Notes under the pieces: model-generated | Seen by the model: the letters and a program-made list of their open reading frames with translations, nothing else | Databases searched by the model: none | Told to the model about the DNA's origin: nothing | Shown here: positions 2,324 to 46,722 of the stretch, in pieces | Layout: each line of letters starts with the position of its first letter | Position numbering within the stretch: position 1 is the stretch's first letter | From: Candidatus Scalinduaceae bacterium | GTDB lineage: Bacteria > Planctomycetota > Brocadiia > Brocadiales > Scalinduaceae | Reading direction: 5' to 3' | Assembly (NCBI GenBank): GCA_046759445.1 | Contig: JBHICG010000001.1 | Span: 94,467 to 158,466, forward strand | Length of the DNA stretch: 64,000 bases | Made by a program: the position numbers and the translations under genes

Positions 2324-2464
2324 GGCACAGTTAACAATCGACAATTATGATACTGGCTATAAGTAAAAACATTACTATACTTCATTATTCATAAGATCAC
2401 TAAAAATTGTCGTTAGTACAATCATTACTACAAACAAACGGAAATTACACACAGAAACGAAACA

Positions 2465-2890
2465 ATGCCAAAGCTTTTTAGAGAAATTGAGAGACGGTCG
2501 GATAAGAGATTAGATCTCTCACTACCAATAAAATTACTCGGTCACAAAGCTAAGTCTAAGAATATCAGTTCTAGTGGTGTTTATTTAGAAGTGGAAACAG
2601 ATGTTGCTAAATTGTTTTCTCCCGGCAAAAAAATAACGCTTGGAATAAATGCAAATATTTATACGCCCTGGCTCCCCAGCAAAACCGTCAGATTTACTAC
2701 AAGAGGAGTAATTCTCAGGACAAACACAGTAGAAGGTACGGAGCATGATAGTGAAAAGAGGACAAAAAGATTGGAAATAGCCTTGAATTTTATTGAAAGG
2801 TTTAAGGTTATGTATAAAGATCATAATCATATGAACGATTTAAAATCAACTCCGTGTTTTAATGCATTAAAGGACTTCTTAAAAGCTTAG
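2465..2890 (+). CDS. PilZ domain protein
   Basis: ERRSDKR and NISSSG (RxxxR and D/NxSxxG motifs). Confidence 0.75.
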   Translation: MPKLFREIERRSDKRLDLSLPIKLLGHKAKSKNISSSGVYLEVETDVAKLFSPGKKITLGINANIYTPWLPSKTVRFTTRGVILRTNTVEGTEHDSEKRTKRLEIALNFIERFKVMYKDHNHMNDLKSTPCFNALKDFLKA

Positions 2891-2929
2891 GACTTAATTA
2901 GTATCTAATTAATAAATGGGAAAATAAAA

Positions 2930-3259
2930 ATGGCAAATATAACAGTAGTAGCAAACGAAGAATTTGAGCAGACGGTTATTCAATCCGATGTGCCTGTTCT
3001 GGTTGACTTTTCTGCAGATTGGTGTGCACCTTGTAAGACACAAACACCTATTTTAGATGAACTATCCAGCGACTTCGATGGTAGGATTAAGTTTGCGAAG
3101 GTAGATATTGATGTAGATGGAAACAAAGAATTGGCTACGAAGTACGGCGTCTTATCCGTGCCAACTCTAATACTTTTTAGCAATGGTAAAATAAAGGATA
3201 CTATGGTTGGCGTTACAAGCAAAAAGAAACTTGAACAAAAATTTGAACAGGTTTTGTAG
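2930..3259 (+). CDS. trxA: Thioredoxin
   Basis: VLVDFSADWCAPC, VPTL, 109 aa. Confidence 0.95.
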   Translation: MANITVVANEEFEQTVIQSDVPVLVDFSADWCAPCKTQTPILDELSSDFDGRIKFAKVDIDVDGNKELATKYGVLSVPTLILFSNGKIKDTMVGVTSKKKLEQKFEQVL

Positions 3260-3271
3260 GAATAATATTAT

Positions 3272-3979
3272 ATGGAAGGTTTTTTGCAAGGTTTAGAAGG
3301 TTATCTCAGCGCATCACCATTTCTTGCTTACATAGCAGTCTTTTTGGGTGGTGTACTCACCAGCTTTACGCCCTGTGTATACCCGATGATACCGATAACG
3401 ATTGCATATATAGGAGGACGTAGTGGTGAGTCAAGATTAAAGGGATTTTCCCTTTCGATTTTTTACGTAATAGGAATGGCAGCGACATACTCTGCTCTAG
3501 GAGCATTTGCAGCTTTGACAGGAAAACTTTTTGGCGCTGCCAGTACGAATCCTATACTCTACCTGGTCGTTGCTAATATCTTTATTTTTTTAGGCTTGTC
3601 AATGTTAGATGTCTTTGTCCTGCCTATACCTTCATTTCTTGCGAGCAGACAACCTGGTAAGAAAGGTGGTGAGTACTTTGGAGCGTTTCTAGTAGGACTT
3701 CTTGCCGGAACGGTTGCAGCGCCATGTACAGCTCCTGTATTGGGGGTTGTCTTGACCTTTGTGGCGGCAAAACAAAATGTCATTTACGGCATGACCTTAC
3801 TTTTCATCTTCTCCATAGGGTTGGGGACGCTCTTAATCATTGTAGGTACGTTTGCGGGTTTGATGTCGAGTATGCCCAAGACTGGGAAGTGGAGTGTGGC
3901 TATCAAAAAGTTTTTTGGTTGGGTAATGATAGGAACAGGAGAATATTTTCTTATAACGGCAGGAAAATTATTGGTCTAA
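3272..3979 (+). CDS. ccdA: CcdA/DsbD transmembrane electron transporter
   Basis: TPCVYP and APCTAP motifs, about six TM helices. Confidence 0.9.
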   Translation: MEGFLQGLEGYLSASPFLAYIAVFLGGVLTSFTPCVYPMIPITIAYIGGRSGESRLKGFSLSIFYVIGMAATYSALGAFAALTGKLFGAASTNPILYLVVANIFIFLGLSMLDVFVLPIPSFLASRQPGKKGGEYFGAFLVGLLAGTVAAPCTAPVLGVVLTFVAAKQNVIYGMTLLFIFSIGLGTLLIIVGTFAGLMSSMPKTGKWSVAIKKFFGWVMIGTGEYFLITAGKLLV

Positions 3980-3988
3980 TTTGTATAA

Positions 3989-4684
3989 ATGATAAGTAAG
4001 ATGAAGATACTTGGCATCAGTGGGAGTCCAAGAAAAAGTCAGACAACAGAGGGATTAGTTAGGACAATCCTGGATGCAACTGGTTTAGAGACAGAATTAA
4101 TATCTTTACACGGCAAGAAGATTAATGGTTGTATATGTTGTCTGGGATGTGTTGAAGACAATATCTGTAAAGTCCAGGATGATTATATCCCCTTAATGCA
4201 TAAGGTACTGGAAGCAGACGCTATCGTGATTGGTGCTGCCAATTATTTTGGCAGGCTTAATGCCCTCACACATTCATTTCTAGAACGACTTTACTGCTTC
4301 AGGCATAACAAGGATGGACATGGTGGTATGAGACTTTCCGGTAAATTAGGGGCTATTGCTTCAGTAGGGGGCGGCGGGGAATGGGAAATGCCCGGAAGAG
4401 ATAGTAAAATGTACGAGATTGCAGGAGAAGATGTTAGGGGATTTTTTGACTATAATGAGATTGAGCTTGTCGGAATCGTAGAGGCACAGGGTGCAGTACC
4501 ATGCTTTTCGTGTGATTATGGTGAAGTCTGCAGTGTAAGCGGTGTAAAAGCTTTTTTTGGCAAGGGTGCAAAGATTACGCCCGAAATCATACCGTGTTTG
4601 GAAAAGCAGCCTGAAGTCGTAAATAAGGCAAAAATGCTTGGAAATGCCTTGCACGATAGATTAAAAAATAAAGAAAAAATGTAA
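3989..4684 (+). CDS. Flavodoxin-family / iron-sulfur flavoprotein
   Basis: GISGSPR, CICCLGCVEDNIC cluster motif. Confidence 0.85.
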   Translation: MISKMKILGISGSPRKSQTTEGLVRTILDATGLETELISLHGKKINGCICCLGCVEDNICKVQDDYIPLMHKVLEADAIVIGAANYFGRLNALTHSFLERLYCFRHNKDGHGGMRLSGKLGAIASVGGGGEWEMPGRDSKMYEIAGEDVRGFFDYNEIELVGIVEAQGAVPCFSCDYGEVCSVSGVKAFFGKGAKITPEIIPCLEKQPEVVNKAKMLGNALHDRLKNKEKM

Positions 4685-4903
4685 AACAATCTACGGATGT
4701 TTACCTCGTACCTCATAGATATTGCCAAATATGACGAACAATTTCCCGACAACATTCCGCGAAACGGGAGCGGGCACAAAGAGGTGCGAGGTTTACATTA
4801 ATGTTCCCATGTTGGATAGCAAACATCTAAGGGGTAAAAAAACCTTTATTTAAAAGTTTTTACTGATAGAATGATTACTTTTTGATTTTGAGATATATTT
4901 CGG

Positions 4904-5470
4904 ATGAAAAATTTTTTTATAAATTGTTATTTAAGAATCTTATTCACTGTTGGAATAGTCCTGTGCGGGATTCTCAATTTGGAATTGAAAGGTAAAGCTG
5001 CCTCTATTGGAAAACAGGCCCCCGAGTGGGTGATTTCCGAATGGATTAATACTACAGGATTTACACTTGCGGATATGCGTGGAAAGGTTGTGGTGATTGA
5101 CTTTTTCCAGCTCTGGTGTCCCGGTTGTAACAATTTCTCCATACCCCTTATGGAGAAATGGAAACAAAAATATCGTGGTCATAAAGATATTCAATTGATT
5201 GGTATTCATACGGTCTTTGAGGGACATTCTCATCAAACACCAAAAAGATTACGCCAATACATCAAAGAAAAGAACATAGCTTACCCTGTAGGAATTGATG
5301 ATCATGTATCAAATAAAAGAACACCAGAAACAATGATTCGTTATCGTACTCGTGGAACTCCTGAAATGGCAGTCATTGATAAAGGGGGTAATATCCGTTT
5401 TCAGCATTTCGGTGGTTTTAATCCAGCAGTTGCAGAAAAGCTTATAGATGCACTTCTAGCCGAAAAGTAG
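4904..5470 (+). CDS. TlpA/redoxin-family thioredoxin-fold protein
   Basis: FQLWCPGC, GIHTVFE, GTP. Confidence 0.85.
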   Translation: MKNFFINCYLRILFTVGIVLCGILNLELKGKAASIGKQAPEWVISEWINTTGFTLADMRGKVVVIDFFQLWCPGCNNFSIPLMEKWKQKYRGHKDIQLIGIHTVFEGHSHQTPKRLRQYIKEKNIAYPVGIDDHVSNKRTPETMIRYRTRGTPEMAVIDKGGNIRFQHFGGFNPAVAEKLIDALLAEK

Positions 5471-5564
5471 CTTCGTACAATGCTGTGAAAAACAGCAGGA
5501 AATGTCTTAAGAGATATAAAACCCGTTAAGATAGTAAACGTGAGAATAACTATTTTAACCCTTT

Positions 5565-5638
5565 TGTCATTCCCGCGAAGGCAGGAATTCACACCCCTTT
5601 GTAACAATTGTGTCATTTCTCCTTTCGTAGGAACGACA
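5565..5638. repeat. Intergenic palindromic REP-like element (TGTCATTCCC...GGAACGACA)
   Basis: Imperfect inverted repeats with ATTCCCGCGAAGGCAGGAAT internal hairpin. Confidence 0.55.
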
Positions 5639-5689
5639 CACTTATTGTCTAAATATTTATTGTTTTCTATATAAAAACGAAATACTTTT

Positions 5690-6298
5690 ATGGATTATAA
5701 GTTTTTAATAAATACATACGAGACAGAGAGAATTAAGACTTTGAGTACATGGTGCACGTTCAAGGACGAGGACCTTCCTAAGCGTCCTCATCCCGGGGAT
5801 AAACGCGGGAGAAATGCTCTTGAGCATATGGTTCATCAGTGTATGAGTGAGAATAAATGGTTTACGGGCATGCTGGGTATTGATGTCGGTGCTCCCCCAT
5901 TACCTGAAAAGGAAACACGTTTGGAGTTTATTAAGCGTTATGCTGAAGATTCAGAAAAACGGGTAGAGGCCTTAAAAGAGAAGGATAATAATTGGTGGGA
6001 AGAAGATGTCAAGTTCTTCGAATTTAATCGTTCACGAGCATGAATTGTTACCAGAAGAATCACCCATACTGCACATCACCGAGGTCAACAGACTATGTTA
6101 TTGCGAATGTTGGAACGTGAGATTTACAGCACTTATGGTCCAACTGCTGATACAGGTGGTTTACAACAAAATAATGCGCTAACGATATATCCTTATCTTA
6201 ATATAGAAACACTAATCAAAGAAGAAACAGCCGGTGGTGCCAAGGCTTCATTGCCAGGGCCTGGAGAAAAACCATGTACGGAACGACCTGAATCTTAA
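5690..6298 (+). pseudogene. DinB-family protein interrupted by an in-frame TGA at 6041-6043
   Basis: Two ORFs in the same frame; read-through gives RSRA*IVTRRITHTAHHRGQ, which carries the DinB His motif. Confidence 0.8.
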
Positions 6299-6374
6299 TA
6301 TGAAAACAAGGGACATCGTTGCATTACTTAGTACTACATTTCATAAATACGGTTACGTATTGTCTTTCGAGCAA

Positions 6375-6408
6375 GAGATTCTTCGTCACTTCGATCCTCA
6401 GAATGACA
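6375..6408. repeat. REP-like palindrome, GTCATTCTGA/GAAGAATCTC family
   Basis: Related copies at 9993-10024 and 14503-14640, and a more diverged one at 60872-60921. Confidence 0.6.
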
Positions 6409-6499
6409 GTTAAAATACGTCACCGTATTTACAAACAAGAGCACTTAGTCCCAGCCAATATAGTAAATATCTAAAAAAATAGGCAGATATAATCTTCTT

Positions 6500-8812
6500 A
6501 TGTGGAAATATAAGATAAACGTACTTATAATTATAATTACGGCTACTTTTGGAAACACCATGGCAGAGGAAACAAAGGAAAAAGGTTGCCTGTTGTGTCA
6601 TGAGAGGATCGATGTTATTAATGAGAAGATGCAACCGTTTCTATTATTTTTTGCCGAACAAATATACGGAAGGGAAAACGGTTATGAATGTTCTATCTGC
6701 CACGAAGGAAATCCTTTATCCAGTGAGAAGAAACAGTCACACAAAGGCTTGATACCAAACCCATCAAGTATGTGGGCGCTGCATGAGGGGAAGGGTTGTG
6801 CGAAATGCCACGACGGTAAAGGGAGCATTGTTACACTGATGGGGGTGCCTCTCAATCCTTCCGTTGGCGGGGAACTTATATGGCAACAATTCCTCTCTTC
6901 AGAGCCTTCCTGGTCTCTTGGAATAGATTATGTTTATAGGTTGTCAATGTCTCTGCATTCGTTAACAACAGGGATAGCAAGCAAGGTTTTGTCCTCTAAT
7001 GGGGTAGTGCCCAAAGGGACATTCCCGTACGGCAATTTCAATATGGAGGATACGGACGGATTATCTCCAAGGGTTGGTTCTGATAATTATAAAGAGTGGA
7101 TCGATAAGGCAATAAAATCTGGCTTTATAAGAGCAGTTGAAAAGGTAGAGGAAATTCCAGATTTCAGAGAGGGTATCGCAGTTTTTGGTTCGGAAGAAAA
7201 AGCTGGTTTTTCAGACATATACAGAAAACAGTGCGGCAGATGTCATGTATGGGGTGAAGGCAGAAACAAAAGAGGTGATTTTAGGGCATCTGGATGTGCC
7301 GCTTGCCACGTGCTATACGGTAACGATGGCAAATACGAAGGTAATGATATAAATATCAGGAACAATGGAGACCGGCCACATCCATTAAAACATCGTATCA
7401 CTACCGCCATTCCAGCGGCTCAGTGCACACATTGCCATACAAGGGGTAGAAGGATAGGGACAACCTTTATGGGAATGTTTGAATACGATTATGTAAGAGA
7501 TGGCCATGCGCCTCCGTTTGATGAACAAGGAAAAACTCAGGAACCATTATTTACAAAAGAGTATATGCACGTGAGAAAAGATGTACATTTTGAAAGAGGG
7601 ATGCAGTGCGTGGACTGCCATACTTCTATTGATGTGCATGGAGATGGCAATATCTATCCTGTAACCGTATATCAGGTGGAGATTACTTGCTATGACTGTC
7701 ACGGAACCCCTGAAAAATATCCCTGGGAACTCCCTGTAGGGTATGGGACACCTGTAACTCTGGATGGAAATAGAGGGGGTTATAAGCGCGAAAATAAAGA
7801 ATACCTGTTTACCTCAAGAGGGAATGTAAAAGCAAACTGGTATAGAGAAGGAAAGAAGGCTTATGTGTTAAGTTTATATACGGGTAAAAAGCATGAAGTT
7901 ACCTTACTCAAAGATGTAAAGTTGAATGATAGCTTTAAGACCCAACAGGGAAAAGTCGCTATGTCAACTATCCACATGCATATAGAAAAGATGGAATGTT
8001 ACGCCTGCCATAGCACATGGACACCTCAATGCTTCGGATGCCATATGCAATATGATAGGAGAGTTAAGGGGACTGATTGGATAAGCACTTCTAAGACAAT
8101 AGATTCAAAAACAGGCAGACAAACAGTAACAAAAGAATTTGGTAATCTATCTTTTGAAAATAGATCCTTTATGAGATGGGAAAATCCTATATTGGGTATA
8201 AATTTTAGAGGAAAGGCCTCTCCCCTTGCTCCCGGATGCCAGGTTTTTTATACCTTTATTGATGAGGAAGGAGATGTCAAGGCGCTAAATAAATTTTATA
8301 CCACGTCCACAGGCCATAATTCTCCTACATTAGCCCCTATGCAACCTCACTCCATAAGCCTTGTTGCCAGAACTTGTGAAGACTGCCATGCAAACCCCAA
8401 GGCCATAGGATATGGCACAGGCAATTCAAGAAGTGCAGAAAAACTCATGGGTGACAGTCCTCTATTCCAGGATCTTTCTAAAGGAGTATATGGGGATATT
8501 CCAGGCGCAAAGACTGGAATATGGCAGGTTTCAAAAATAGAGAATTTCCCGTATGCTCTGGATCAATTGGTCGTAAGAAGTGGGAAGCAAACGCAGAATA
8601 TGCCTCTGCCCGAAGATAGGCCGTTAAACCATGAGGAAAGGCATCATGTTGAGAGAGAGGGTTTATGCATAGGATGCCATCAATATCAAGGAACCCCTGG
8701 ATGGGAGAGAATAGTTAAAAAATATGGAAAAGCAAGTACTGCGGAACAGCATGAGAAGATAGTTTCAGAGGCAATTAAGAGTTTTATGGAGAAAAGTAAA
8801 CTAATCCCTTAA
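6500..8812 (+). CDS. Multiheme cytochrome c (12 CxxCH), ExtM-like architecture
   Basis: CLLCH, CSICH, CAKCH, CGRCH, CAACH, CTHCH, CVDCH, CYDCH, CYACH, CFGCH, CEDCH, CIGCH; signal peptide. Confidence 0.9.
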   Translation: MWKYKINVLIIIITATFGNTMAEETKEKGCLLCHERIDVINEKMQPFLLFFAEQIYGRENGYECSICHEGNPLSSEKKQSHKGLIPNPSSMWALHEGKGCAKCHDGKGSIVTLMGVPLNPSVGGELIWQQFLSSEPSWSLGIDYVYRLSMSLHSLTTGIASKVLSSNGVVPKGTFPYGNFNMEDTDGLSPRVGSDNYKEWIDKAIKSGFIRAVEKVEEIPDFREGIAVFGSEEKAGFSDIYRKQCGRCHVWGEGRNKRGDFRASGCAACHVLYGNDGKYEGNDINIRNNGDRPHPLKHRITTAIPAAQCTHCHTRGRRIGTTFMGMFEYDYVRDGHAPPFDEQGKTQEPLFTKEYMHVRKDVHFERGMQCVDCHTSIDVHGDGNIYPVTVYQVEITCYDCHGTPEKYPWELPVGYGTPVTLDGNRGGYKRENKEYLFTSRGNVKANWYREGKKAYVLSLYTGKKHEVTLLKDVKLNDSFKTQQGKVAMSTIHMHIEKMECYACHSTWTPQCFGCHMQYDRRVKGTDWISTSKTIDSKTGRQTVTKEFGNLSFENRSFMRWENPILGINFRGKASPLAPGCQVFYTFIDEEGDVKALNKFYTTSTGHNSPTLAPMQPHSISLVARTCEDCHANPKAIGYGTGNSRSAEKLMGDSPLFQDLSKGVYGDIPGAKTGIWQVSKIENFPYALDQLVVRSGKQTQNMPLPEDRPLNHEERHHVEREGLCIGCHQYQGTPGWERIVKKYGKASTAEQHEKIVSEAIKSFMEKSKLIP

Positions 8813-8831
8813 ATATAGATAAAACATTTTT

Positions 8832-9959
8832 ATGGCAATATTAATAATCCTTTTCCTGACTACGTGTTTTCTTGCATACTCAAACGGTGCTAATGATAAC
8901 TTTAAGGGAGTAGCTACGCTCTTTGGTAGCAGAACTACTAATTATAAAAACGCCATTCGGTGGGCGACTATTACGACTTTTGCAGGTTCGGTGGGTTCGG
9001 TATTCTTTGCTCACGCCCTTGTAAAGACCTTTTCTGGAAAGGGGTTGGTACCACAGGATATCTCTATATCACCTGAATTTCTTACCGCGGTGGCAATCGG
9101 TGCCGCTATTACGGTCATGGTTGCGACGGTTACGGGTTTCCCCATATCAACCACACACAGTCTTACGGGCGCCCTCGTTGGCGCTGGGTTTATGGCCATA
9201 GGCTCGGAGGTTAACTTTACCGTCTTGGGCAGCTCTTTTTTTCTTCCACTTTTACTCAGTCCCTTTATCGCAACAGCAATTGGCGGAATTCTTTATATTT
9301 TATTCCGAAGTATTCGCATTCGTTCTGGTATTACAAAGGAGTGGTGTCTTTGTATTGGCGAGCAGAAGGAAATAATACCCTCTACCCAGCCAGTTGCTAT
9401 CCTTGCAGCAAAATGTGGGAATTCCATCGATGCGACAATTGATAAAAGTCAAAACTGTATAGAAACCTATAAAGGAAATTTCCTGGGCATGAATTGCCAG
9501 AAGATGTTAGATTATCTGCACTTTTGTTCTGCTGGCATTGTGAGTTTTGCCAGAGGCTTAAATGATACACCAAAGATTGTAGCACTTTTATTATTAATCA
9601 AGGGTCTGGCAATACACTGGGGTATGCTGGCTGTCGCTGTTGGTATGGCGCTAGGCGGACTTTTAAATGCCCGCAAAGTCGCCGAAACTATGAGTAACAA
9701 AATCACAAGGCTTAATCACGGTCAGGGCTTTACAGCAAACCTTGTTACTGGTATACTTGTTATATTTGCCAGTAAGTTTGGAATGCCAGTATCTACGACA
9801 CACGTATCAGTAGGGTCGCTCTTCGGTATAGGCTTGGCTACTAAGCACATAAACACTCATAAAGTACTAGAAATAATTTTATCGTGGTTCATAACACTGC
9901 CCTTAGCTGCTATATTCAGCGGCGGCGCTTATTGGATATTAGTCAGATTTGCGAATTAA
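8832..9959 (+). CDS. PiT-family inorganic phosphate/anion transporter
   Basis: NGANDN, GLND, and PISTTH/PVSTTH repeated signatures. Confidence 0.92.
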   Translation: MAILIILFLTTCFLAYSNGANDNFKGVATLFGSRTTNYKNAIRWATITTFAGSVGSVFFAHALVKTFSGKGLVPQDISISPEFLTAVAIGAAITVMVATVTGFPISTTHSLTGALVGAGFMAIGSEVNFTVLGSSFFLPLLLSPFIATAIGGILYILFRSIRIRSGITKEWCLCIGEQKEIIPSTQPVAILAAKCGNSIDATIDKSQNCIETYKGNFLGMNCQKMLDYLHFCSAGIVSFARGLNDTPKIVALLLLIKGLAIHWGMLAVAVGMALGGLLNARKVAETMSNKITRLNHGQGFTANLVTGILVIFASKFGMPVSTTHVSVGSLFGIGLATKHINTHKVLEIILSWFITLPLAAIFSGGAYWILVRFAN

Positions 9960-14698: not shown

Positions 14699-17245
14699 AT
14701 GGAAGTAAACGATAAATCACTTTTTTACGTACATGATTATGTTCAAATAGAGAGAGACTCTCTTTATCTACTTATAGACCCCGAAACACCAAATTGGATT
14801 GTAACTGACAAAAGAGGCAGCCAGATTGTAAGCAATATTAAAAAATGTAAAAACGTTAGAAAACTGATATTCGACTATGCAAATGATTTTGATATGGAAC
14901 AAACCAGGGCATGGTTGGAAATAGATACATTTCTGAGGGATTTGATAAGGTGTAAATTCTTATCCTCAGAACCCGTAAAGAAAACTGCTTACGTCGGCAG
15001 ATCAAATTTCATTCACGCAGAAAAACTCAATGAACTATGGATTCACACTAATAATCTCTGCAATCTGACATGTCCGCATTGTCTGGTGAATTCATCTCCA
15101 CACGAGGATAAAGGTCTTCCTACGGACTCAATCAAGAAGATTATTGACGAAGCTGTAACATTAGGAACAAGCTGTTTCTATTTTACGGGTGGCGAGCCAT
15201 TTATGAGGAAAGATATTTTTGAACTTATTGAGTATGTTTGCAATCGTAAAGGGACAGAACTGATAATACTTACAAATGGAACACTTCTGAGAGGAAACAT
15301 CATTGAAAGATTACAAAAGTTTAATAAGGAACAACTAAGGATTCAGATAAGCCTTGATGGTTCAAAGCCGGAAATAAACGACCCTTTGAGGGGTAAGGGC
15401 AGCTTTGACCAAATTATCGAGGGGATTAAGAATATTATCAGGATTGGATATTCTCCGACAATAACAACCGTGGTGACAAAACATAATATTAATGATGTGC
15501 CTGAAACGACAAAGCTGATTGCACAATTGGGTGTAAAGACTCATCATCTCCTCTGGGTACACAAACGAGGCAGGGTAACTGATAATGGTAATGATTTTTT
15601 TACTTCAATAGATGAGGTAATCGAAACAACGAGAAAGGTGAAGGATGTAGCAGATAACCTGGGTATGTCAGTAGACAACATTGATTCTTACAAATTCAGG
15701 GCAAATAGCAACAGAGGAACACGTTACGATTTGGGTAATGCCTGTTACGATAGCATGTGCGTATATTCAAATGGTGAAGTCTACCCGTCTGCTTCATTTG
15801 CCGGCCATGAAGGGCTGAAATGTGGAAGTATACTTGAGAATTCCCTTAGAGAAATCTGGGAAAATAGTAATATTAGCAAGGCATTTAGAAACGCAACACT
15901 ACAGAATAAAGAAAAATGCAACGAATGTCATATAAAGTTTATATGCGGTGGTGGTGATATTGAACATTCATTCTTCTATTCTGAAAATGGGTTCAAGCTG
16001 GAAAATAATAAATTCCCTGCAGACGTTGGCGTACATGCCTTGGACCCTTATTGTGACCTGCACAAGGAGATAGTCAATGACGTAATATTTGAGCTTGCTG
16101 AGGCGAGGAAGAAGTTGTTGGAAAGAAAAACAGGGTTTACTGCTCCCGTTGTATTACGCTCAATGGGCGAAGGCTCTCTCAATTGTGGATTGACGATTTC
16201 GGATTTCGGAATAGAAAATCTAAAATCCGAAATCCGAAATCCGAAATCGGTTCGTACTCTTCATTCAAACTGTGTGCTTTCTTTTGACGTGGATAAGCCA
16301 AGAAGTATTGTACGTGAGTTTTATGGTAATGCGGCAGAAGCTCCTCAAGAGGACTTATGTTGTCCAACCAAGAATTCAACAGAAGATACAAGTCATATTC
16401 CACAGGATGTATTGGACAGGTTCTATGGATGCGGAAGTCCGACTACAATAGCAGAAGTCTCAGAAGGAGAGACGATGGTCGATTTGGGAGCAGGCGCGGG
16501 GATTGACTGTTTCATTGCTGCAAAGAAGGTTGGCCCAAAGGGTAAGATTTACGGGATAGACATGACGGATGAAATGTTAAAGGTTGCCAATGAAAACAAA
16601 CATCCGGTGGCAAGGAACCTTGGTTACGATATTGTGGAATTTAGAAAAGGATTTTTAGAAGATATTCCCGTTGATAATAATTCAGTTGATTTGATCACAT
16701 CAAATTGCGTTATCAATCTATCCCCTGACAAAAAAAAGGTCTTCGGCGAAATGTGGCGAATACTGAGGGATCACGGGAGGATTGTTATCTCTGATATTGT
16801 TTCTGAAGAAGAAACTCCTCCGTTTTTAAAAATCAATAAACAACTGTGGGGTGAATGCATCAGCGGCGCATTAACCGAAGACGAATTTATGTCCTATCTT
16901 GAACAGGCTGGCTTTTATGGACTTCAAACACTACAGAAGGTCTTCTGGAAAGAAGTGGAAGGGTATTCATTCTATTCAGTAACATTACGTGGGTATAAGT
17001 TTGAAAAGAAGGAGGGTTGTGTATACGTTGGGCAAAAGGCAATTTATCATGGCCCGTATAAGGCAATAACGGATGAAGAAGGCCACCTGTTCCCCAGGAA
17101 CGAGCCCGTTGAAGTCTGCACAGATACAGCGGCCAAACTAAGCAACCCACCTTATGCAGGACAATTTACCATATTCAATCCTGACGATGCAAATACCGCA
17201 TCATACAATTGCAGTCCCTCGGAAGAAGGCGTTCCTTGTTGTTGA
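14699..17245 (+). CDS. Radical SAM/SPASM domain fused to an ArsM-like arsenite methyltransferase
   Basis: CNLTCPHC, FTGGEP, SPASM Cys (CYDSMC, CNECHIKFIC); MTase half has LCCP, YGCGSP, DLGAGAG, SNCVIN, WGECISGA; ends in PCC. Confidence 0.88.
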   Translation: MEVNDKSLFYVHDYVQIERDSLYLLIDPETPNWIVTDKRGSQIVSNIKKCKNVRKLIFDYANDFDMEQTRAWLEIDTFLRDLIRCKFLSSEPVKKTAYVGRSNFIHAEKLNELWIHTNNLCNLTCPHCLVNSSPHEDKGLPTDSIKKIIDEAVTLGTSCFYFTGGEPFMRKDIFELIEYVCNRKGTELIILTNGTLLRGNIIERLQKFNKEQLRIQISLDGSKPEINDPLRGKGSFDQIIEGIKNIIRIGYSPTITTVVTKHNINDVPETTKLIAQLGVKTHHLLWVHKRGRVTDNGNDFFTSIDEVIETTRKVKDVADNLGMSVDNIDSYKFRANSNRGTRYDLGNACYDSMCVYSNGEVYPSASFAGHEGLKCGSILENSLREIWENSNISKAFRNATLQNKEKCNECHIKFICGGGDIEHSFFYSENGFKLENNKFPADVGVHALDPYCDLHKEIVNDVIFELAEARKKLLERKTGFTAPVVLRSMGEGSLNCGLTISDFGIENLKSEIRNPKSVRTLHSNCVLSFDVDKPRSIVREFYGNAAEAPQEDLCCPTKNSTEDTSHIPQDVLDRFYGCGSPTTIAEVSEGETMVDLGAGAGIDCFIAAKKVGPKGKIYGIDMTDEMLKVANENKHPVARNLGYDIVEFRKGFLEDIPVDNNSVDLITSNCVINLSPDKKKVFGEMWRILRDHGRIVISDIVSEEETPPFLKINKQLWGECISGALTEDEFMSYLEQAGFYGLQTLQKVFWKEVEGYSFYSVTLRGYKFEKKEGCVYVGQKAIYHGPYKAITDEEGHLFPRNEPVEVCTDTAAKLSNPPYAGQFTIFNPDDANTASYNCSPSEEGVPCC

Positions 17246-17919: not shown

Positions 17920-17994
17920 GTACAACGCTCCGCATAACCGGCTGGTAAAGAAGCACAGCAGATTTACCAGTCTGAGTTGATGCGGTTGTTGGGC
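17920..17994 (-). other. attC site (75 bp)
   Basis: Minus strand GCCCAAC AACCG CATCAACT...CTGGTAAA/TTTACCAG...GGTTATG CGGAGC GTTGTAC. Confidence 0.9.
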
Positions 17995-18008: not shown

Positions 18009-18878
18009 CTATCTATTTAGTTCGTTCTCGATAACGTGCGACAATTTATCCCACGTTTCCTCTTGCTCAATTTCTGGCAATGATAGTAATGGTTTGTCAG
18101 GAGAATTTAATGCTTGAAATTGTGAAAGGTGCTTGTCTCTCAAAAACCGACATGGTTTTAAAATAATAGGTAGTACCCTTGTTCCTTCTAGCTCAGCTTT
18201 TTTGAGAATCGGAGGTAGTTCATTCTCAACAATGAAGTCGGATGCAAGAAAATCGGCACTTATTATTAAAACCGCTATTGCTGCCTCTGATAGTGCTTTT
18301 TCGATTTGTTCTTTCCACTTTTCTCCCGTCTTTATCTTTGTATCATCCCATACATCAACCAATCCATTTTTTTCTAATGGCTTGAGATGAACATGAAGTC
18401 TTTCTAGATGTTTTTTGTCTTCACGGCTATAACTTATAAATACTGATTTTTTATTTTTTGATTTTGCACTGTTCTCTTCTCTGTAATAGTTTAATTTCTC
18501 GTTTTTTAAAAATATATTTCCCCCTGTTCCTATAGAAGACCGCCATGTCCCTTCTATAGCACCATTACCGATAACCTTAGCATTAAGAGTTACGTTTCCA
18601 TGATTCGAAGTTGGCATGCTAATGGTTAGTGGACGGTTATTAACAAAAATTTGTTGTGTGCAATTTTTCTTTAAAAAATCCCAGTCTGGAGTCATATTCA
18701 ATGTAATATCATCATTCTTAATTTCTCCTGAAAATGAATACACTACTGTACCATGAATTGGGTCATGAATTCTGGCAATACCCGAAAGCTTGGTTAATTC
18801 CTGCTTTACTTCTGCAAATACATTTGCATTATTAGTTCCTGTGATTCTTCCTGACCAATTCCCCTCAATACTTCTCAT
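18009..18878 (-). CDS. TIR-domain protein with N-terminal beta-rich domain (cassette)
   Basis: VFISYSRED, VWDD, ISADFLASDFIVENEL including the putative catalytic Glu. Confidence 0.9.
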   Translation of the reverse strand: MRSIEGNWSGRITGTNNANVFAEVKQELTKLSGIARIHDPIHGTVVYSFSGEIKNDDITLNMTPDWDFLKKNCTQQIFVNNRPLTISMPTSNHGNVTLNAKVIGNGAIEGTWRSSIGTGGNIFLKNEKLNYYREENSAKSKNKKSVFISYSREDKKHLERLHVHLKPLEKNGLVDVWDDTKIKTGEKWKEQIEKALSEAAIAVLIISADFLASDFIVENELPPILKKAELEGTRVLPIILKPCRFLRDKHLSQFQALNSPDKPLLSLPEIEQEETWDKLSHVIENELNR

Positions 18879-18944: not shown

Positions 18945-18971
18945 TTGTAGACATTTTTTCTTGGGTTTCTT

Positions 18972-19118
18972 GGGGATGCATCTTGATATTTGACATTGTG
19001 AATTTGCGGCTTACTAAAAAAAGATTTTCCTTCCATGATTTTTCAAATAATTTCTTTGATGTTTGATTTGTTTATCAATTTGTTGGTTTTAACTTTGTCA
19101 AATGTCAAATACGTCCCC
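18972..19118. mobile_element. About 147-bp MITE with GGGGATGCATCTTGATATTTGACA-type terminal inverted repeats, copy 1
   Basis: About 24-bp imperfect TIRs; near-identical copy at 21338-21485. Confidence 0.8.
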
Positions 19119-21258: not shown

Positions 21259-21337
21259 CCCCTATTCTTGTTTTTTTTGAAACCCAACTCATTTATTCTT
21301 TACCCTGCATTTGTTTTATTCTTATCCATATTTTCTT

Positions 21338-21485
21338 GGGCACACATCTTGACATTTGACATTATGAATTTGCGGCTTACTAAAAAAAGATTTTCCTTCC
21401 ATGATTTTTCAAATAATTTCTTTGATGTTTGACTTGTTTATCAATTTGTTGGTTTTCACTTTGTCAAATGTCAAGATACATCCCC
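21338..21485. mobile_element. MITE copy 2 (direct repeat of 18972-19118)
   Basis: Same internal sequence; right TIR TGTCAAATGTCAAGATACATCCCC. Confidence 0.8.
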
Positions 21486-21658: not shown

Positions 21659-23176
21659 TTAAATATCAACGTTGAATGGGAAAACTCCTACCTCTTCCTG
21701 TAGTAATCTTTGTGCCATAACAACGTCAGGGTCATCCCGATTTTGATCGTAAAAAAGCTGGTCAATCATAGAAGTCAATATAAAAATGTTATGTGCTTCT
21801 TGTGCGTCAATAAATTTAATTTTACTAAGTGTTACACTTCTTGAGAACGATTGTGCTATTTGTAGTCCTTGGTCGTTTTCAAAACCCCGATAAACCACCT
21901 CACCTCTAGATTCGAAGTTTTTCTCAATTAGCACGCCTCCCTTTATAAAGTCTTGACGAACCGGTGGATTAACATACTTTGAGCACGAATTATTATATTT
22001 ACTAGGGTCTATATATGTCTCTGGATTTTCTAAAAAAATATTGATCATATGTTTTTGAGCATCGCAAACATTTTTGATAAACTTTAAAAATATACTTTTA
22101 TCGAAAAGATTAGCCCAAGCTAAGTCGAGAGGGAAAACTTTTTCAATCATTTTTGGAAATTTATCGGCTTCACGTAGTCCATGCTTAAAAGCTTTGTTAA
22201 CTTTTGACAGATTAGTTATATCACTCCAATCGTCAAAGAGCTGAATAGACAAGCTTGAGCCATTTGGAGGTCCCGCTTTTAATAAGTAATTGTGTATAGC
22301 AGCAAATCTAAAAGTTGGACACGCTCGCCATTTATCATCTTCATATGATCCCATTAATGACCAAAATACGATAGCTGATGCCATTTCTAAAGGCATTAAT
22401 TTGTTATGACGGTGCCAAATATTTAGTAGCGCACGGTATAATATAATATAGGGTACATTCAGTTCCTTAAAAACAATGTCCTGAAATCTTTGGAGTGACT
22501 GCTTCCCTAAATCTGACCAAATCGTCTGCATTTGGCAAATTAGCCCGGACAATTCAAATATATGGCAAGGTTGATAGATGACAGATTCAGATTGTTTTGG
22601 TGGTCGAAAAGTAAAATTTCTCATCATCTGATAATAATGCATTGTGACCGCAATTAACCGATCAAAATGATTAAGTGTTTCATTTTTAGCCAGTTTTAGT
22701 AGTGAATTGTCAAGCGTGAAAAAAGGTAAAGTACAAGGTCGGTAATGTAAACCATTTTTAAGAGGCCTCAAATCGGAAAGGTGTTTGAGCATGCTTTGTC
22801 GTTTATGATAATCATAACGAGACCAAGAAGAAATTGGTACTGGAATACAATTAAAGGATTCATTGTTTTTCATATCTATCAAATGTCCAAGAGTCTGCAC
22901 ACCGTTAAAAAGTATCACCATGCGTAGCCTCCACAACATCTGACTATATGGTGCTATAAGAAAATCATGAAAGTGGCGTACTTCGTGAGAACAAACTGAA
23001 ACCATTGACAAAGCATCAAATGCCTGAACTGGCGACAAAGATAATATTTCATTCTCAGTGATTGATCCAGCTCGATCTAACCAATTGCAGCTGTTTTGAT
23101 CGGCTACACGGATCACAACGCCTACATATTTTGGATTAAAACCCCCGTAATCAGCTTGGATAGAATTGATTATCAT
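21659..23176 (-). CDS. Hypothetical protein with HExxH motif, possible zincin peptidase (cassette)
   Basis: SHEVRHFHD and a downstream Glu in HIFELSG; 4-bp ATGA overlap with the upstream gene. Confidence 0.6.
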   Translation of the reverse strand: MIINSIQADYGGFNPKYVGVVIRVADQNSCNWLDRAGSITENEILSLSPVQAFDALSMVSVCSHEVRHFHDFLIAPYSQMLWRLRMVILFNGVQTLGHLIDMKNNESFNCIPVPISSWSRYDYHKRQSMLKHLSDLRPLKNGLHYRPCTLPFFTLDNSLLKLAKNETLNHFDRLIAVTMHYYQMMRNFTFRPPKQSESVIYQPCHIFELSGLICQMQTIWSDLGKQSLQRFQDIVFKELNVPYIILYRALLNIWHRHNKLMPLEMASAIVFWSLMGSYEDDKWRACPTFRFAAIHNYLLKAGPPNGSSLSIQLFDDWSDITNLSKVNKAFKHGLREADKFPKMIEKVFPLDLAWANLFDKSIFLKFIKNVCDAQKHMINIFLENPETYIDPSKYNNSCSKYVNPPVRQDFIKGGVLIEKNFESRGEVVYRGFENDQGLQIAQSFSRSVTLSKIKFIDAQEAHNIFILTSMIDQLFYDQNRDDPDVVMAQRLLQEEVGVFPFNVDI

Positions 23177-23529
23177 TTCTCTTTTAATAACCCCGTAGCA
23201 TTTTGAAGTTTTAGTTGGATTTCCATTTCAGTCATACCCGCAGTTATTTCTTCAGATGCAACCATCGTTCTAATTACAATTTTTTGGTTTGGGTTGTTCT
23301 TCATCCAACGTTCTAAAAGTTTAGCGAATTCTTTGCTAATAAATATACCACCTTGAATGATTGCTATTACCGCTGCCACTTCAATTATACCAAATTGCAG
23401 GTAGGTTTGTTCCTTTTTGCTTGCAATATCTTCGATTACTATGTCATTGGCTTGAGCAAAAGTTCGAAATTGTTCAACAAAAGCAGGGTCACATAGAATC
23501 TCCGTACGTACACTCTTTGGATTAGTCAT
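23173..23529 (-). CDS. Small protein with a central hydrophobic helix, EACC1-like (cassette)
   Basis: GGAG RBS; FGIIEVAAVIAIIQGG...LLERWMK...KIVIR pattern. Confidence 0.55.
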   Translation of the reverse strand: MTNPKSVRTEILCDPAFVEQFRTFAQANDIVIEDIASKKEQTYLQFGIIEVAAVIAIIQGGIFISKEFAKLLERWMKNNPNQKIVIRTMVASEEITAGMTEMEIQLKLQNATGLLKEK

Positions 23530-23562: not shown

Positions 23563-23798
23563 ACAAGTTATTATAAAGTTTTTGGATATCACCACTATTG
23601 TAATGATATCAAGAAAACCAAGTTACTACCTTATGGAAAAGCAGCGGGAAGGTTCATTTATTTACGTTTCTGCAAAAATAAACTTAATTCAAGATGATTT
23701 AATCTCATCACACAATGCGGCATAGTCTTTATACTGTTTGAATTGAACATGTTGGAATAGTAAAGCTACATATTATTGAAGTCAAGGGAAAAGAAATG
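23563..23798 (-). repeat. 236-bp cassette-array leader (promoter plus attI-like end), copy 1
   Basis: Four mismatches against 27812-28047; identity ends at ACTTGT, at the G/TT of the first cassette (GTTATAA). Confidence 0.85.
23757..23785 (-). promoter_or_regulatory. Sigma70-type promoter facing the cassettes (Pc-like)
   Basis: TTGACT-17 bp-TACTAT. Confidence 0.7.
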
Positions 23799-27811: not shown

Positions 27812-28047
27812 ACAAGTTATTATAAAGTTTCTGGATAACATCACTATTGTAATGATATCAAGAAAACCAGGTTACTACCTTATGGAAAAGCAGCGGGAAG
27901 GTTCATTTATTTACGTTTCTGCAAAAATAAACTTAATTCAAGATGATTTAATCTCATCACACAATGCGGCATAGTCTTTATACTGTTTGAATTGAACATG
28001 TTGGAATAGTAAAGCTACATATTATTGAAGTCAAGGGAAAAGAAATG
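27812..28047 (-). repeat. 236-bp cassette-array leader, copy 2
   Basis: Direct repeat of 23563-23798. Confidence 0.85.
28006..28034 (-). promoter_or_regulatory. Sigma70-type promoter (Pc-like), copy 2
   Basis: TTGACT-17 bp-TACTAT. Confidence 0.7.
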
Positions 28048-45951: not shown

Positions 45952-46722
45952 TTAAAGTGAACGAGAAATACCTCCATCTTTTCTTACACGCCAGAAATGA
46001 AGCATCATTAGCCCCCCGGCAATTACGGGTATTGCTATACAATGCCATACATATGCACGAAGCAAGGCCGGGGCAGCAATTTCAGTACCGCCTAAGAGAG
46101 CAAAACGAATATCATTATTTATCTTTACACCTAATAAATCAGCAAAAGGCCCTTGATAGCCTATAAAAGGAGTTGCCCCACTCATATTAGTACCAACCGT
46201 AATCGCCCAATAACCAAGCTGATCCCATGGGAGCAGATAACCAGTAAAACTCAAAAGGAACGTTAACACTAACAAGACTACACCAAGAACCCAATTGAAT
46301 TGCCTGGGAGACTTATACGAACCTGTAAGGAAAACCCTGAGCATATGAAAACATACTGTTATAACCATCACATGGCCAGCCCAGCGGTGTGAGTTCCTCA
46401 AAAAACGTCCATAAGGCACTGCATACATCAAGTCAATCATATCTGCGTATGCGCGATTGACATCTGGCACATAATAAAACATTAACAAAATGCCCGTTAT
46501 CGCCTCAAACAAGAAGATAAAGAATGTTATACCACCCAGACACCACGTAAACCTGATTTTTAAGGCATGCTCTGGAATCTTCACGGGATGCAAATGCAAC
46601 CATACGTTACTTATAGTCTGAAGGGCCCTGTTTCTGGAGGTATCAGCATAACCATGTCGAAACACAGACTTCCAGATTTCACTGTCCGTAATTCTCTTTA
46701 TTATATCCGAGATTAAATTCAT
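45952..46722 (-). CDS. petB: Cytochrome b6-type subunit
   Basis: WCLGG (heme ci Cys), [24 protein letters not shown]...LHF. Confidence 0.92.

Follow-up and report, generated by a model that had tools for sequence, protein, structure and literature searches.

A widespread two-gene module coupling an EACC1-like small protein to a predicted gluzincin-type metallopeptidase in an integron-like setting

Introduction

The pairing of the small protein EACC1 with a caspase-like peptidase was described as System 4 by Kaur et al. 2020 (PMC7159879), who proposed that EACC1 is a membrane sensor activating its partner peptidase. Evans et al. 2025 (bioRxiv 10.1101/2025.11.14.688446; PMC12642450) subsequently demonstrated activation in the KrEACC1-KrAvs12 pair and showed EACC1 to be a caspase-activated pore. 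The characterised EACC1 was autoinhibited and disrupted liposomes only after cleavage, with a putative cut in KrEACC1 at Asp49; deletion of EACC1 abolished toxicity, EACC1 being the cleaved toxic product, and in the pore model of these authors the rings are held by β-strand contacts between protomers (Evans et al. 2025). The partner reported for EACC1 is either a cyclase or a cysteine protease of the caspase-like kind, in most cases fused to a recognisable sensor, and a stress or protein-damage role was raised by Evans et al. 2025 for DnaK-fused EACC1 modules. In this study, we analysed a two-gene cassette in which a small EACC1-like protein stands directly before a predicted metallopeptidase with an HExxH motif. 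The cassette lies in a 64,000-nucleotide stretch of DNA (hereafter, the window) from a Candidatus Scalinduaceae bacterium (assembly GCA_046759445.1, contig JBHICG010000001.1, positions 94,467 to 158,466), and a preliminary description of the window had put it forward as a candidate protease-activated defence system.

The logic inferred for the pair, a latent pore-former encoded beside its activating protease, is also that of the bacterial gasdermin-protease and Pepco-protease modules (as presented by Evans et al. 2025). Pores released by proteases are the bacterial counterpart of pyroptosis. Zinc-type proteases also act in anti-phage responses: Lit is an HExxH protease that cleaves EF-Tu in phage defence, and in the CBASS regulator module the metallopeptidase CapP, with its partner CapH, has a repressor as substrate. 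A metallopeptidase in the CBASS regulator module has been reported (bioRxiv 10.1101/2022.04.27.489752). Unlike the substrate proposed for the pair studied here, those of Lit and the CBASS enzyme are not pore-formers, and neither enzyme showed a profile match to the large-protein family. No EACC1-metallopeptidase pair was found in the literature searched, which left out most subscription journals. The main text and two supplements of Evans et al. 2025 make no mention of a metalloprotease, their Supplementary Fig. 12, which was not covered, may bear on novelty, and two supplements of Kaur et al. 2020 are without EACC1, the source data for EACC1 lying outside the material covered.

Results and Discussion

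Pairing and Distribution of the Two Genes

The cassette is a real, widespread, and tightly coupled two-gene module that occurs across many phyla. In the window, open reading frames (ORFs) of 118 and 505 amino acids (aa), their ATGA overlap, the motifs LLERWMK (residues 71-77) and KIVIR (residues 83-87) of the small protein, and HEVRH (residues 64-68) of the large protein were all present as first described (Table 1). Homologous loci were obtained from scans selecting HExRH[FY]HD in GTDB genomes (42 loci), metagenomes (80, the best of 105), and viral contigs (1), with some near-duplicates among them. The hosts named in the records included Alpha-, Beta-, Gamma-, and Deltaproteobacteria, Actinomycetota, Acidobacteriota, Bacteroidota, Ignavibacteriales, Polyangiaceae, and Omnitrophota.

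The small gene was located directly upstream of the large gene in 113 of the 118 loci with enough flanking sequence (five other loci were too short), and in 83 of 88 once the 30 loci that had seeded the profile were removed. The co-conservation whose lack would have refuted the preliminary description is near-strict. The five misses comprise two fragments (L042 and L118) and three loci (L094, L115, and L123) whose small ORF is divergent and, judged by eye, similarly laid out. Both genes were single-copy and adjacent to one another in all 30 of the 30 whole genomes, the exceptions in integrity being a large gene that is split in L002 and a small gene with a stop in L005. Sequence distances of the two proteins were correlated over 50 loci (Mantel rho 0.48, reached in 0 of 999 permutations), which shows joint inheritance only. 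The only match in the viral collection (IMG/VR) was the divergent pair of L123 (4414-6491), with proteins of 127 and 562 aa.

A conserved third component was sought by clustering the 627 neighbouring ORFs of the 123 loci and was rejected, as the clusters were lineage-specific or generic. A caspase acting in trans was likewise disfavoured; the three caspase-like genes of the genome lie elsewhere, with no homologue of the small protein beside them. As a separate observation, L115 holds a same-strand run (2446-9768) of an Hsp70, a DA1-like zinc peptidase, and the small EACC1-like and large HExxH genes, continuing downstream with an M48 peptidase, a radical SAM protein, an ORFan, and another M48 peptidase, giving four predicted zinc proteases in total.

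The Small Protein and Its Likeness to EACC1

The 118-aa protein has an N-terminal strand-helix-strand, a loop, a hydrophobic helix from about residue 46 (19-residue window, Kyte-Doolittle 2.25), a C-terminal β-hairpin (83-96), and a final helix. As in the EACC1-caspase system, it is encoded by a small 5' gene directly before the peptidase gene and has one hydrophobic helix flanked by α/β parts, a similar size and predicted fold, and a confident predicted complex with the peptidase. In the Atlas, an EACC1 cluster was the first row of the structure search with the small protein (TM 0.67), and EACC1 clusters made up 10 of the 30 matches in the feature search. No match was found in Pfam, NCBIfam, PADLOC, PHROGs, or, by sequence profile, the PDB, and the Pfam EACC1 model PF19953 gave none at E ≤ 0.1. 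A search with the single sequence returned only itself and a profile search returned 10 proteins, none with a Pfam label, in a word-index tool that is insensitive here; PF19953 also matched none of 201 genomes from the host phylum, in a run that had no positive control.

Seventy small relatives were taken from loci of the pair, and EACC1 was their commonest Pfam match: nine of the 70 hit PF19953 at E ≤ 0.1 (best 2.1e-4), and a single stray, weak PADLOC match was recorded among them. Alignment by HHalign against eight caspase-linked EACC1 proteins covered residues 7-111 (100 columns) with an E-value of 1.8e-4 and a score of 27.6, compared with at most 12.9 for 30 column shuffles and 11.0 for the reversed alignment. 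All eight canonical EACC1 genes extracted above the cut-off are followed by an ORF with a caspase motif. In the three genomes containing both kinds of gene, the profile of the small subfamily did not pick up canonical EACC1, and the subfamily is therefore regarded as distinct from EACC1. Because the PF19953 model was not passed, we call the window protein EACC1-like and not a member; the family layout claimed for it earlier is supported by predicted fold, by profile alignment, and by the relatives, and not by a Pfam match of its own.

The best-conserved stretch of the small family is the loop before the hydrophobic helix, with the motif D40-x-T42-x-L44-x-[F/L]46-[G/D]47-[L/I/F]48; 69 of the 70 relatives have F or L at position 46. 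A hydropathy peak of at least 1.6 was present in 50 of the 70. The window protein has G60-G61, and Gly stands at column 60 in 27 of the 70. By eye, the loop matches the QD|WG site of KrEACC1, with Asp at the matching position 45 in 3 of 70 relatives and at 47 in 29 of 70. Since Asp is rare at the former and more frequent at the latter, the register relative to the KrEACC1 cut site is uncertain.

In other respects, the pair differs from the EACC1-caspase system. The partner is a predicted HExxH...E metallopeptidase and not a caspase-like cysteine protease or cyclase; it has a constant length of about 500 aa, lacking the variable STAND, DnaK, or other C-terminal domains; and the small protein belongs to a separate subfamily in which Asp is rare at the caspase-cut position as matched by eye. 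The pair was set apart from the EACC1-caspase system because it failed the Pfam cut-off and has no caspase partner. One of the collected sequences (L133, 3-1493) holds a canonical EACC1-linked caspase whose C-terminal part resembles an SRA plus HNH module by eye.

The Large Protein as a Predicted Metallopeptidase

The family to which the 505-aa protein belongs comprises at least 244 sequence clusters and has neither a name nor a solved structure. A phmmer search of 1.84 billion representatives (E ≤ 0.001), in which the motif played no part in selection, returned 244 clusters at 50% identity, and ten sampled clusters were all unnamed or "hypothetical". No match to the large protein was obtained in Pfam, NCBIfam, PADLOC, PHROGs, or, by sequence profile, the PDB. 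None of 59 family members scanned had a Pfam match at E ≤ 0.01, PADLOC 2.0.0 (library of 2023) gave no matches for both window proteins and four large homologues, and the 30 Atlas feature neighbours had no Pfam family in common. The longest homologue among the 149 matches listed was 552 aa, no dedicated search for longer fusions having been made.

When 129 homologues with lengths of 455-560 aa were aligned (length excluded 25 of the 154 proteins), H64, E65, H68, D71, P114, W118, E208, and R290 were invariant, and G11, F13, G19, R67, Q215, and others were more than 90% conserved; an N-terminal G11-G12-F13 segment and Y243 are further conserved features. The HExxH motif was invariant in 129 of 129 homologues from a search independent of it and is therefore not a chance occurrence. 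It sits on a predicted helix (49-74), and E208, the candidate third ligand, lies 139 residues after H68 on another predicted helix (203-223). A helical insert of about 125 residues (76-200) separates the two, and a C-terminal part (326-505) ends in a hydrophobic strand.

The AlphaFold2 model of the full-length protein was confident (pLDDT 93.6, pTM 0.93). When residues 1-325 were folded alone and searched, zinc peptidases filled 12 of the top 15 rows, including DPP III (Z 6.9, rmsd 4.6, 142 aligned), the aminopeptidase N family (5.9), LTA4 hydrolase (5.7), and thermolysin (4.9), with oligoendopeptidase F and lugdulysin as further rows; the alignments span residues ~7-305 at Z 4.7-6.9, all below Z 8 and thus in the range that the tool calls ambiguous. 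The gluzincin argument rests on the agreement of independent fold entries together with the invariant residues, and the N-terminal part is weakly indicated by modelling to have a gluzincin-type peptidase fold. The zincin match expected by the preliminary description was thus weak and consistent in kind. As in gluzincins (thermolysin of M4, aminopeptidase N and LTA4H of M1, oligopeptidase F of M3, DPP III of M49, and lugdulysin of M30), HExxH is on one predicted helix and an invariant Glu on a later one, and 128-157 residues could be structurally aligned. Unlike them, the protein shows only 6-13% identity to its structural matches and no Pfam peptidase profile match, starts at the region aligning with thermolysin residue 110, and has the helical insert and an unmatched C-terminal part. 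As model residue 7 aligns with thermolysin residue 110, G11-G12-F13 is likely the counterpart of the substrate-binding edge strand of thermolysin. A membrane or secreted protease was disfavoured: hydropathy peaks at 1.45, neither a transmembrane segment nor a leader is present, and most members have the start of the conserved motif 5-11 residues in from the N-terminus.

Predicted Complex and Proposed Mechanism

The complex of the two proteins was predicted by ESMFold2 using both alignments and zinc, together with three controls. The complex score was 0.67 (runs 0.70, 0.67, and 0.50), compared with 0.00 for the best of the controls; the mark for this score was reached by 116 of 157 solved pairs and 2 of 215 mismatched pairs, numbers that carry over to this case only approximately. 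The runs shared at least 53% of contacts, with a partner pLDDT of at least 78. Recall of a known structure by the model is unlikely, because no EACC1-zincin structure turned up in PDB searches. In the predicted interface, protease residues 129-138, 480-486, and 499-505 meet small-protein residues 4-12 and 85-96. Among 129 homologues, a hydrophobic residue occupies protease position 133 in 118 and position 503 in 124. The prediction supports binding of the two proteins to each other. The modelled interface would be a docking site and not the active site, an arrangement that fits substrate tethering and would also fit capping or regulation.

On balance, we lean towards a metalloprotease-gated death pore, in which the logic of the EACC1-caspase system operates with a metallopeptidase in the place of the caspase. 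A fuller version, plausible while falling a little short of probable, is a self-contained two-gene immune switch: one gluzincin chain would sense infection, hold the EACC1-like protein, cut it before a Phe or Leu, and release the pore. In the models, the last strand of the protease (499-505) and its helix 129-138 would dock on the edge of the small protein's β-sheet (4-10, 85-96). Thermolysin-like enzymes cut before hydrophobic residues, and since residue 46 is almost always F or L, the likeliest bond to be cut would be Q45|F46. By analogy with the characterised EACC1 (Evans et al. 2025), a single cleavage within the loop that precedes the hydrophobic helix may remove an autoinhibitory N-terminal piece, and the released fragment would likely form membrane pores and kill the cell. 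The two least supported steps concern the trigger. It would be sensed by the protease chain itself, as no sensor gene or fused sensor domain was found, most likely through the variable helical parts (121-200, 326-455); and it would be phage infection, with anti-phage defence as the probable outcome.

If this mechanism is correct, zinc proteases would join cysteine and serine proteases as activators of pyroptosis-like bacterial death, a new peptidase family would be defined, and the EACC1-type effector module would prove rewirable to a different catalytic class. The lack of a visible sensor would further point to a novel way of sensing infection. With two small genes and a specific predicted cut site, the system is directly testable.

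Several results weigh against the mechanism. Besides the missed EACC1 model and the ambiguous fold scores, the full-length model of the large protein gave generic helical hairpins or nothing in fold searches, with no zincin row; Foldseek was without a match, and with residues 1-325 as the query, Foldseek followed by re-alignment stayed at or below Z 4.2. The fourth row of the fold search was SnPolE, a non-protease iron oxidase with HExxH...E (Z 5.7, rmsd 4.3, 140 aligned). The catalytic residues and the proposed scissile loop are both absent from the confident contacts of the predicted complex. A single query matched none of 72,556 plasmids or 50,697 phages. In Nitrosospira, the loci keep the same neighbours, with a SelO-like gene downstream in eight of them (L013, L014, L016, L020, L021, L023, L027, and L071), which suggests stable inheritance of the pair there, unlike a fast-moving defence gene. 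In the 4 kb flanks of 17 loci, for which 8 kb stretches elsewhere in the respective genomes served as controls (families classed by hand; DUF3800, SRAP, DACNV, and XerC-like integrase not counted), defence or toxin-antitoxin genes occurred at 4 of 17 loci vs. 1 of 17 controls (Fisher p 0.34) and mobile or defence genes at 7 vs. 2 (p 0.12).

Flanking ORFs lacking a Pfam match were more frequent at the loci (65 of 131 vs. 40 of 133, p 0.002, although the ORFs are not independent). The pair sits in accessory DNA, and defence-island enrichment was not significant; the setting is one of defence locally, judging by the window neighbours, and only weakly so across homologues. Of the checks set with the earlier proposal that a zincin-like peptidase takes the role of the caspase, three spoke for it (the EACC1 resemblance, the zincin-type fold match, and the co-conservation), and the predicted binding is a further point for it; the predicted contacts, which leave out the catalytic site, and the defence-gene neighbourhood test did not bear it out.

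Alternative Explanations

The order of effector and regulator could be reversed, with the protease as the effector and the small protein as a membrane-linked sensor or regulator, so that on a signal the protease would be freed and cut a host or phage target. We consider this unlikely, if less so than the other alternatives. An interface predicted away from the active site is what it would lead one to expect, the pair has no other sensor, and cleavage of EF-Tu by Lit offers a precedent. Kaur et al. 2020 proposed precisely this role for EACC1, which was later shown to be the cleaved product whose deletion abolishes toxicity (Evans et al. 2025); moreover, conservation in the small family is highest in the loop that precedes the hydrophobic helix, which is what one would expect of a cleavage site. 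Slightly less probable is a toxin-antitoxin or guard arrangement, in which the small protein is toxic alone, the large protein caps or degrades it continuously, and loss of the large protein frees the pore. The protease is predicted to cover the C-terminal β-strands of the small protein (85-96), and strands of this kind hold EACC1 rings in the pore model of Evans et al. 2025; the pairing is strictly one-to-one, and toxin-antitoxin cassettes are known from chromosomal integrons (PMC13108822). Set against this, the characterised EACC1 is autoinhibited and acts on liposomes only once cleaved (Evans et al. 2025), and L002 (genome G407) combines an intact small gene with a large gene interrupted by ~1.3 kb of inserted sequence, albeit in a single metagenome-assembled case.

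The metalloprotease-gated pore might also serve a purpose other than phage defence, the same cut-and-pore chemistry acting in signalling or in a response to stress or protein damage. The non-significant defence enrichment, the stable neighbours in Nitrosospira, and the L115 pair in its run with Hsp70, the DA1-like zinc peptidase, and two M48 peptidases all fit such a role, which Evans et al. 2025 raised for the DnaK-fused EACC1 modules. We judge it improbable, given that the flanks are rich in ORFs without a Pfam match (with the non-independence stated above), that the pair is missing from the family relatives of the host, and that the array of cassettes around the window pair also carries TIR and restriction-modification genes. 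Least probable of all is that the large protein is an iron-dependent enzyme with a gluzincin-like fold, of the PolE or α-ketoglutarate HExxH oxygenase type, that modifies the small protein or a metabolite. SnPolE stands high in the fold search, and the invariant R290 could bind a co-substrate. PolE, an Fe/pterin oxidase, does use an HExxH...E site for oxidation, and its HE/DxxH is followed by the Glu ligand after 21-23 residues (PMC12614342), whereas in the large protein, unlike PolE and DUF6421, the next invariant Glu comes 139 residues past the motif. Peptidases fill most of the top fold rows, no biosynthetic enzyme is found among the conserved neighbours, and the partner resembles a known protease substrate, all of which count against this reading.

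Locus and Integron-Like Setting

Table 1. Positions of the features of the cassette in the window.
Feature	Position	Strand	Remarks
Small EACC1-like gene	23529-23173	-	118 aa; predicted latent membrane effector
Large HExxH gene	23176-21659	-	505 aa; predicted cytoplasmic gluzincin-type metallopeptidase, unnamed family
ATGA stop/start overlap of both genes	23176-23173	-	Translational coupling inferred
AGGAG ribosome-binding site and small-gene start codon	23527-23541	-	
236-nt repeat	23563-23798	-	Promoter-like match at 23785-23757; attI-like 3' end
Short attC-like site, 48 nt	21540-21493	-	Closes the unit, ~120 bp past the stop codon

The cassette (Table 1) lies in low-GC surroundings (30-39% across 18-30 kb of the window), together with a TIR protein, a D12 methyltransferase with a SacI-like nuclease, an FRG/PDC-S15 protein, and several ORFans. 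In a second DNA run belonging to the same study, one contig spans 21505-23651 with 0 differences. Exact matches to the large gene (21850-22039 and 22288-22630) came from two contigs of one metatranscriptome, in which DNA carry-over is possible, and expression is not claimed. None of 27 genomes representing the host family (Scalinduaceae) contained the pair.

The 236-nt repeat upstream of the small gene has a second copy in the window at 27812-28047 (98% identical), and other copies lie on contigs C129, C75, C48, C49 (two), C14, and C104 of genome G000. Its terminal core, ...AATAACTTG|TT, with an inferred G|TT crossover at 23564|23563, is also the core of a site ~400 bp upstream of an integron integrase on C104. 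As this core is common to the site beside intI, the end of the repeat was read as attI-like. The element has at least eight copies; eight genomic ones end in nearly the same core and then diverge at once, with a different ORF following in seven of the eight, and no integrase gene is found beside either window copy. The copies resemble a scattered set of promoter-plus-attI platforms that lack an integrase. The position first assigned to the cassette, directly behind a promoter, holds in outline, given the attI-like repeat and the TTGACT-17-TACTAT match (9/12) inside it; promoter-like matches were not enriched there (13 vs. 10.5 ± 3.4 in shuffles).

The 48-nt attC-like site has a near-identical copy on contig C24 of G000 (45963-46006). 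Its inner hairpin has a z of -2.7 and its outer boxes are unpaired in the predicted fold; the usual minimum length of attC sites is ~55 nt. The attC scanner found only two sites in the array and missed this one, and Rfam returned nothing at gathering level. A 143-nt element with terminal inverted repeats (21332-21474 and 18966-19108) flanks the methyltransferase-nuclease pair on both sides, each copy adjoining attC-like sequence, and is possibly a miniature insertion element that targets or splits attC sites.

The TIR_2 protein (18009-18878) has a cassette to itself, the attC of which (17920-17994) is well formed; the N-terminal ~140 aa of the protein are unannotated, and its top PADLOC match was ThsB (E 8.8e-21). 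Just beyond the array, at 14699-17245, an 848-aa radical SAM protein is fused to a methyltransferase-like domain.

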